Part shown: positions 55,401-60,739 of the stretch, piece after piece | Layout: the number at the start of each line of letters is the position of its first letter | Numbering within the stretch: the stretch's first letter is position 1 | NCBI GenBank assembly: GCA_963514005.1 | Contig: OY740821.1 | Span: forward strand, 9,176,001 to 9,240,000 | Length of the DNA: 64,000 bases | Origin: Raja brachyura | Taxonomy: Eukaryota | Reading direction: 5' to 3' | Notes under the pieces: model-generated | The model's input: the letters and a program-made list of their open reading frames with translations, nothing else | What the model was told of the DNA's origin: nothing | The model's database searches: none | Translations under genes and position numbers: made by a program

Positions 55401-58400
55401 GACTGTGAAAGGTGTGTGACCTTTCTTTGACTAGGACCAATAGCTGTAGTGTGTGAAGGATCAGTGATTGGGATCAATGAATTTGGACCTGGGCTTGTGA
55501 GAGGGACTTTACTTGATCCATTGTCAAGGACAGTTCTCAAGTAAGTGTTGAATTTTTCTGTTGGAATTGTACCGTGCAAGAATGTTCGTTAGCTCAAAAA
55601 GCTGAAAGGAAATGACAAGATTTAATGAGTGTCGTTAAATTCTACTGATTCATTTGGATTCTCCTCCAGATGAACCAAATGTTGACAATATTCTAGCCTG
55701 TCTTTTGCACTGCAGTTCACCTGGGGCAAGTGTCATTCTGTCAGCTAACGTTCCACTTATTCTCATTAAAATATTTTTTTTTCCAGCATTGCATAATAAG
55801 CCTACTGCTCATCGTTCACACCAAATAGCAATTATTATAAATCTGTCATTCAACAATTATTAAAATTCATCCGCACACATCCAAATAACAAAGTTCAGGT
55901 TGGATAAAAATGAGCAAATGCATTCACTTCTATAGATTCAGGCTGTGCAATGAGCACTGGGGACTCTGTTCATGGAATAGAGACAACAGGTAATTCCCTG
56001 CATGCCTGATCTGGATAAAGAAGACGTTCTTTAGCATGATGGGGTAGTATGTTACTCTAATTCTACAGTTAACATTCAGTCTCCGACATTTGGTGTTTAA
56101 CTCGGTCTATACATGTAAATCGTGAATAGAGAGATCTTACCCTCGGACCTCTTTGCCCTGTGTGTGGTGGGGGGGGGGGGGGGGAAAGAGAGAAAAACAT
56201 TAAATGGCATCGTCAATCAGAGCTATATCAATACTAGCATAACACACCCCCTTCACAGTCTAACAGGTGCTCTCCTAGCTGGGGGTGGGCTCTTTATAAA
56301 AATCCGGCCTTGTCTTCTCATAATATTGAGGGGCGGAAGCAAGCACAACACATGGTGTACTTGCATTTGACTGGCACTGAGCTATGACTGCAATGACTGA
56401 CCGTCTAGATGACAAATATTTAACTCTGCAAACATTGTATCAATGTCTGTTTAGTACGCACAAATCAATGCAGTAAACTAGCAAGCATAAATCAGAATTT
56501 CTAAAGAAAACTGCTAGCGAAATGACCTGTTAAAAAGCAAATTATCAAGGATTGATTAATCCTCCAGCAGAGTTTTTTTGATTTTATAAGAGAAAAAAGC
56601 ATCTAAAAGTCAGCATATTTGGCGAAACAAAATTGGTTTGTTGGCATTATGGTTTGCCTAGACGATAAGCATAATTGAATATCTATCTTTCAACATTTGC
56701 AGCAAATATTTATTTTTAAAAAAGGTATCATCTGATTTTTTAAAATCCCCATACTTCTCTTTTTTGCTTCTTTTATTCACTGGTGCAAGCAGCAAGTAAA
56801 TGTTCAAAAACTTGTACTCGAGTTCACCTTATTTTATACAGGTGACTTGCAGTGTGCAGCTCTTCTGGGGAAAACTGGAATCACAACAGCAGATTTTACA
56901 AATCTACATAGAAATTTGTGATTTGCAGACACATGTACAAAAGGAAGTGAGTGGCCAATGGGACTTTTTGAGAAGTAACTTGATTAAAGCATGTGGTTGA
57001 AATTTGCTTTCCAAAATGAAAGCCATGTAACACTAAAGTGGATCCTGCTCGCTTTGAAACCTGGCCATTATTTCAGGGCTGGGCACATCGCAAATGTGGC
57101 GCGTTGATTGGAAAAGTGTTAACTGCAAAAATATCAAGTTAGAAATATCCTAAATGGATCAGGGGAATCTTGGACACCTCAGAAGGTTCTAGAGCTTACT
57201 GCAGCAATGAGTAAAAACACAACAAAAGAGCAAGTACAGGAAAAATGCAGATTTCACCTTTTTGCTTAAAAACACAGCAGCCACTAATGGACAAATCTTA
57301 CCAGGGGAATCCCTGGTAGTTGTGTCCATAAATGGGGGATTTACAGTAATTTATTTATATAGGAAGAAAATAAATAAATTACGATCGATGGGAGGAGCTC
57401 GTTGGTTCGAACACACAGGGCAGCATTCTCCGATGGGAATCTCGAGATTAGGACAATCTTTAATGTCTTCGCAGATTATATCGTCGCAAAGGATAATCCC
57501 AGTGTCACAGACACAGATACTACAAGGCCTGGGTTTCCACACATCTTTGTCACTATATGTCTGCCCATCTTGTATACAGGTCGATTTCAGGCCTTCTGTG
57601 TGTGAATGGCAGACGGAGAGGAGAGAGATCTGTTAGTCATAAATCGGTGACATGGTAAAACATTTACCCGTTTTTCTGCACACCTTTAATAGACTTAATT
57701 ATTTCACTTGTAAAGCATATTCAGATTTAACACAGTCAAAGCTAATTATTCTGCAACAGAATCATATTTAGCAGACGATAGAAAGTCAACATGATTAGTT
57801 TGAGACTACACCATTTATAATATTGTATAGAAGTATTTAGTGATCAATTATATTGGCAATAAATAAAAACCCTCCATGAATTGCCCAAATTTACAGCTGA
57901 CATTCTTGCAATATGGTAAAAATGGTTTCGAGAAATGCACTCAATCCCCACCAGGTGGCTCCATTGCACCACTCTCCCTGATCTCTGCACACAAGTGTAC
58001 ATTTACAATCAAATCCCAGTATAGAGGGGGTTTGCAATTACTTTGCTGAAAGCACTGCATTTAATTCCAGATTCTATCTACTGCTAAGTGACATACAATC
58101 CAGCAGACAGTGTTGCTCAGTAATAGCGAACGAAGCTAATAATGTGATATTGGGGAAAATACGAGCATTCAACGTCGATATACGAATATGCAAAACGGTT
58201 TAAAATTGGTAACAATATCTTCCAAACCGTAATGCATTAATATTGCAAACATGTCAATGTAGATTAGTGATTGCAATCTCAGGTATGACAGAGGCTCGCC
58301 TCTGGTGTGTGCTGGGTTACTCATTTTGAATCCAGTTCTCTCCCATGTGTGAGCCCGCTAGACCCTCAGAGGGAATGAATAGATCCCATTCTCAATTGAC

Positions 58401-60739: not shown

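Follow-up and report, generated by a model that had tools for sequence, protein, structure and literature searches.

The stretch of DNA analysed here, 64,000 nucleotides long and referred to as the window, carries a collagen gene on its minus strand. The coding part of exon 1 (60646–60739) begins with an ATG at 60739 and encodes a signal peptide; by tblastn, 60739–60650 matches residues 1–30 of an eel protein (P0004) at 70%. It is followed by an intron 1 of 3050 nt (57596–60645) with GT..AG borders (GTAAGT...ACACAG) and by a 213-nt exon 2 (57383–57595) that encodes a VWC domain (PF00093). This domain has only two PDB matches, both to the VWC of COL2A1. On its own, the VWC exon fails to split COL2A1 from COL1A1, with 43 of 65 positions matching each named example. 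Downstream of exon 2 lie 35 Gly-X-Y exons with sizes of 45, 54, 99, 108 and 162 nt, drawn from 49 candidates of which the rest are nested sub-hits or the pre-helix exon. Scored by its best single stretch, a 108-nt helix exon reaches 40.9 bits against COL2A1, compared with 28.2 against COL1A1 and 24.3 against COL1A2. The N-telopeptide exon matches three unnamed collagen-II-like proteins at 21 of 25 positions, versus 14/25 for a named COL1A1 and 15/25 for a named COL5A2; against the one named COL2A1 it reaches just 9/25, part of the stretch being missing from that COL2A1 model. A protein search with a 54-residue helix exon returned generic collagens and left the paralog unnamed. By sequence comparison, the gene carrying the candidate element is col2a1. 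The element had been placed in col2a1 intron 1 by the original prediction, and both the gene identity and the intron (60645–57596) are confirmed.

Several other features of the gene were observed. The exon-2 donor lies inside a 13-bp stem-loop (57346–57382, minus strand; −11 kcal/mol, z −3.18, with 2 of 200 shuffles as good). The mammalian switch between the IIA and IIB forms is controlled by a stem-loop that this one resembles. Exon 2, at 213 nt, has a human counterpart of 69 codons; its end (57383–57390, minus strand) extends one codon further past the last Cys than in the proteins P0006, P0019 and P0038, and there is no GT three bases before its donor. We take this donor to correspond to the mammalian IID position, seemingly the only donor available there. 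The promoter and 5' leader (60841–61057, minus strand) match a mispredicted bonefish ORF (P0005) by tblastn, at 59% over 29 codons and 35% over 31 codons, indicating that non-coding likeness to a teleost extends into the col2a1 promoter. One intron contains a 140-N assembly gap (window positions 38335–38474), and CR1-like LINE fragments are found in introns at 47205–47513 (minus strand) and 12173–12415 (plus strand). For the former, the top identity among the best 120 of 398 matches is 86%, to a Leucoraja erinacea protein, an indirect pointer to a skate-like batoid, in line with the expected cartilaginous fish.

The candidate enhancer consists of three segments on the minus strand of intron 1. 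All three strings were located in the order originally claimed: segment 1 at 58517–58494, an AT-rich 17-mer (segment 2) at 58449–58433 and segment 3 at 58420–58375. The spacers between them are 44 and 12 nt long. Segment 3 is the counterpart of the mouse 48-bp SOX-trio core, which here starts 2.3 kb downstream of the col2a1 ATG. At its 3' end (58375–58393) lies the counterpart of the SOX9 dimer site, in which the left half carries 2 mismatches and is separated by a 5-nt spacer from the right half, TATTCAT, likewise with 2 mismatches. The change of the key site from CATTCAT to TATTCAT is present as described. The mouse sequence given in the original prediction agrees, for the core, with the oligonucleotide printed in PMC2396410. 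For segment 1 and the AT-rich segment the mouse counterparts are putative, no printed copy of the rodent letters having been found in the papers searched. Further upstream, 10 nt at 58549–58558 (minus strand) agree with the reverse primer of a mouse ChIP amplicon (PMC6715657). They lie upstream of the core, where the primer would be expected downstream, and as a post hoc match this may be due to chance.

The mouse 48-bp enhancer oligonucleotide (PMC2396410) and its rat version (PMC2374456) are both in print. Aligned by eye, segment 3 and mouse bases 1–44 share 33 identities; there are 10 mismatches, and three gaps (2, 1 and 1 nt) are needed. The identities fall into four blocks (10/11, 6/6, 7/7 and 6/6) that keep the mouse order, as predicted for the HMG-like sites. 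The score of this alignment, a lower bound of the optimum, was compared with those of shuffled 44-mers that preserve base composition only. Under three lenient scoring schemes, 1, 8 and 19 of 3000 shuffles reached the segment-3 score in the real intron 1, corresponding to P ~0.0003–0.006 for an intron named in advance. The match was not significant in intron 1 under blastn-like scoring, where 1612 of 3000 shuffles reached its score, nor was it significant across both strands of the window (78 of 300 shuffles). The predicted alignment to the mammalian enhancer is therefore upheld in intron 1 with lenient scoring and not upheld with blastn-like scoring or window-wide; the core is significant on its own only because intron 1 of col2a1 was named in advance. 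Within this scope, segment 3 resembles the rodent 48-bp core beyond chance. We consider it very probable, judging from the sequence, that the candidate is a homologue of the mammalian Col2a1 intron-1 enhancer.

The window holds a single copy of the AT-rich motif, against an expectation of 0.01. By the mouse letters of the original prediction, the 17-mer is 16/17 identical to a stretch of the mouse enhancer that would lie roughly 12 bases ahead of the core. The single copy counts as evidence of homology only if these letters are right, in which case it would decide the matter. The block contains a heptamer that we take to be forkhead-like. The 17-mer is likely the counterpart of the AT-rich element of the rat enhancer; the presence of such an element in the rodent enhancer is described in PMC2132792.

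Potential SOX half-sites were compared with the consensus WWCAAWG, and pairs with the published core rule for SOX9 pairs, AANG..CNTT (Oh et al., PMC2852419). With 2+2 mismatches around a 5-nt spacer, the inverted pair that closes the core on its 3' side (58393–58375) does not satisfy the core rule. The mouse SOX9 dimer sites, defined through mutants of site 1 and of site 2 (PMC2952863), form a pair with 2+1 mismatches and a 3-nt spacer when read by eye. Intron 1 contains 105 pairs with up to 2+2 mismatches, so that the 3' pair proves nothing as a motif alone, and we rejected motif strength as evidence for the element. SOX9 dimers prefer spacers of 3–5 nt, a range that includes the 5 nt seen here, and for SOX6 a preference for tandem and A-rich motifs is described (PMC4787819). 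Two tandem SOX-like half-sites on the same strand, at 58414–58420 (1 mismatch) and 58400–58406 (2 mismatches), align to the first two blocks of the mouse core. There is also an extra inverted SOX-like pair at 58527–58511 (minus strand), the first half of which lies outside the reported element. This pair, with 1+2 mismatches and a 3-nt spacer, obeys the core rule, and its 1-mismatch half is identical to CATTCAT read on the opposite strand. Intron 1 contains three core-rule pairs, this one included. At the window rate of 0.69 per kb, about 0.2 such pairs are expected by chance within 150 nt of the core; the pair is thus a lead only and not significant by itself.

In a search of sequencing runs, 20 of 21 rows, bearing seven organism labels, share words with the candidate stretch. 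The word shares of 0.20–0.40 were considered as a sign of special constraint and rejected, being about what 95% identity gives. Four runs are about 93–99% alike to intron 1 across most of its length, and the relatives, at ~95% identity over the whole intron, are too similar for conservation to stand out as a peak. Because the relatives align over most of intron 1, contig depth profiles of the four runs over the intron show no peak at the candidate enhancer. The differences counted were the 40 listed of 240 rows, all common to two runs and spanning 58108–59143. The three segments, 87 nt in all, contain none of the 40 (3.4 would be expected; P=0.035), the two relatives probably representing one lineage comparison. 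Spacer sequence of 55 nt contains eight (P=0.0005 when treated as independent, 0.02 when counted as four events), and the whole reported span holds 8 listed differences against 5.8 expected. The avoidance of the three segments by the listed differences may give weak support for constraint. A difference-free stretch of 117 nt was rejected as evidence of constraint, since a longest run of that size is unremarkable (P=0.34). In run X1, one contig of low depth (2.6) lacks 319 nt of intron 1 immediately upstream of the element (58725–59045), which may reflect either an error or a genuine deletion in this relative. Metagenome contigs, scanned by motif for host-derived orthologues, gave 10 loci, which we take as chance since none aligns past the motif; the longest match (L008) covers 26 nt and has unrelated flanks.

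We propose that the candidate and the mammalian Col2a1 intron-1 chondrocyte enhancer are orthologues, that the skate lineage received its copy from the last jawed-vertebrate ancestor, and that this copy probably works in a like manner. SOX9 would sit as a homodimer on the 3' inverted pair of the core (58393–58375) and possibly also on the better-formed pair at 58527–58511, with SOX5/6 on the AT-rich block and on the tandem SOX-like sites of the core's 5' half. The assembled factors would then contact the promoter ~2.3 kb away and raise col2a1 transcription in chondrocytes. Skate chondrocytes express Col2a1 together with Sox5, Sox6 and Sox9, an observation from which its authors proposed conserved regulation (PMC7217701). 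The two mentions of 'enhancer' in the text of PMC7217701 show no enhancer test, and a term search of 12 supplements of PMC7932699 gave expression rows only. Given homology and the published co-expression, there is a good probability that the predicted binding and activity occur. It had also been proposed that direct SOX9-to-COL2A1 wiring predates the chondrichthyan–osteichthyan split. The greater age follows reasonably from homology; the motifs alone fail to show direct wiring, because the 3' pair fails the core rule and equally loose pairs are so numerous in the intron.

Could the homologous element have been kept mainly for another input? It may serve forkhead or SOX6 binding in the AT-rich block, in notochord or prechondrogenic cells, with SOX9-dimer control of col2a1 exerted through other sites. 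If the mouse letters of the original prediction hold, similarity is highest in the AT-rich block, and the SOX9 pair is the most changed part. Published work points the same way: the human fragment also drives expression in notochord and node (PMC2132792), FOX motifs are enriched in SOX9/SOX6 peaks (PMC4787819), and in zebrafish, knockdown of sox9a leaves notochord expression of col2a1a unchanged (PMC3805895). We nevertheless consider this explanation unlikely, since the core retains the order of its four blocks, the two halves of the SOX9 pair among them, and no core block contains a shared difference among the 40 listed of 240. A further, also unlikely scenario makes the element the most ancient direct SOX-to-collagen II switch that can be recognised, one that displays turnover. 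Here the key half-site would have weakened and its partner strengthened, SOX9 input would come via the upstream pair built on the inverted CATTCAT, and the AT-rich, forkhead-like block would be the most fixed part. If this were true, the fixation of that block would suggest an older notochord module taken over by cartilage.

A decaying homologue without present function, recognisable through slow genome change in chondrichthyans, would fit the altered key heptamer (TATTCAT for CATTCAT) and the likeness of the relatives, which at ~93–96% over the whole intron needs no selection locally. Against this, the differences (40 listed of 240) avoid the motif blocks, and some 420–450 million years on two lineages should erase unselected likeness to mouse; we regard decay as improbable. 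Chance resemblance, aided by gaps set by eye and by a version of the mouse flanks biased towards the window, would account for the lack of significance under strict scoring or window-wide and for the upstream mouse segments not found in print, but it is very improbable given that the mouse core is printed independently (PMC2396410, PMC2374456), that the match sits in the expected intron, orientation and distance, and that 1–19 of 3000 shuffles score as well under lenient schemes. A conserved, SOX-responsive chondrocyte enhancer remains the reading that we favour.

Conserved SOX wiring of collagen II in cartilaginous fish has already been proposed from co-expression in skate (PMC7217701). The element is therefore to be expected, and to a specialist it is pleasing rather than surprising. 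A search by title and by the start of the abstract found no work on the Col2a1 intron-1 enhancer in chondrichthyans; most subscription journals lie outside that search. Public multi-species alignments may already show the candidate. What it adds is a physical site: control of collagen II by the SOX trio in cartilaginous fishes has so far been deduced from co-expression (PMC7217701), and a candidate of ~150 nt with named sites makes the cis side of that deduction directly testable by reporter assay and gel shift. An intensively studied enhancer also gains a natural variant through it.

The closest known system is the 48-bp Col2a1 intron-1 enhancer of mouse and rat (Lefebvre et al.; PMC2396410, PMC2374456, PMC2952863). 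The skate candidate shares with it the gene, the intron, the orientation, a similar distance from the gene start and what may be a counterpart of the 3' inverted pair. The two differ in detail. The right half-site of the skate is TATTCAT (2 mismatches), whereas that of the mouse is CATTCAT (1 mismatch); the left half-site is shifted by one base and has an AATG core; the spacer of the 3' pair is 5 nt instead of 3 nt; and three small gaps separate the aligned cores. The skate also has the extra well-formed pair ~100 nt upstream. In human COL2A1, intron-1 region Y (+2388 to +2696; PMC2132792) contains the core at a position similar to that of the skate core at 2.3 kb. Region Y is active in cartilage, notochord and node of transgenic mice, whereas the skate element is known from its sequence; the AT-rich element lies outside region Y and is dispensable there (PMC2132792). 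A second SOX9 enhancer of the same gene, in Col2a1 intron 6, likewise uses a SOX9 inverted pair (PMC2852419). When a 15-nt piece of the rat intron-6 site, one short probe, was compared with the skate gene, a single match with 3 mismatches was found where 2.67 are expected, a weak negative with nothing above the chance level. The Nkx3.2 jaw-joint element (PMC9665848) provides a parallel outside the collagen genes, as it is also a skeletal enhancer kept across jawed vertebrates. Unlike that element, the Col2a1 enhancer is a textbook target of SOX9.
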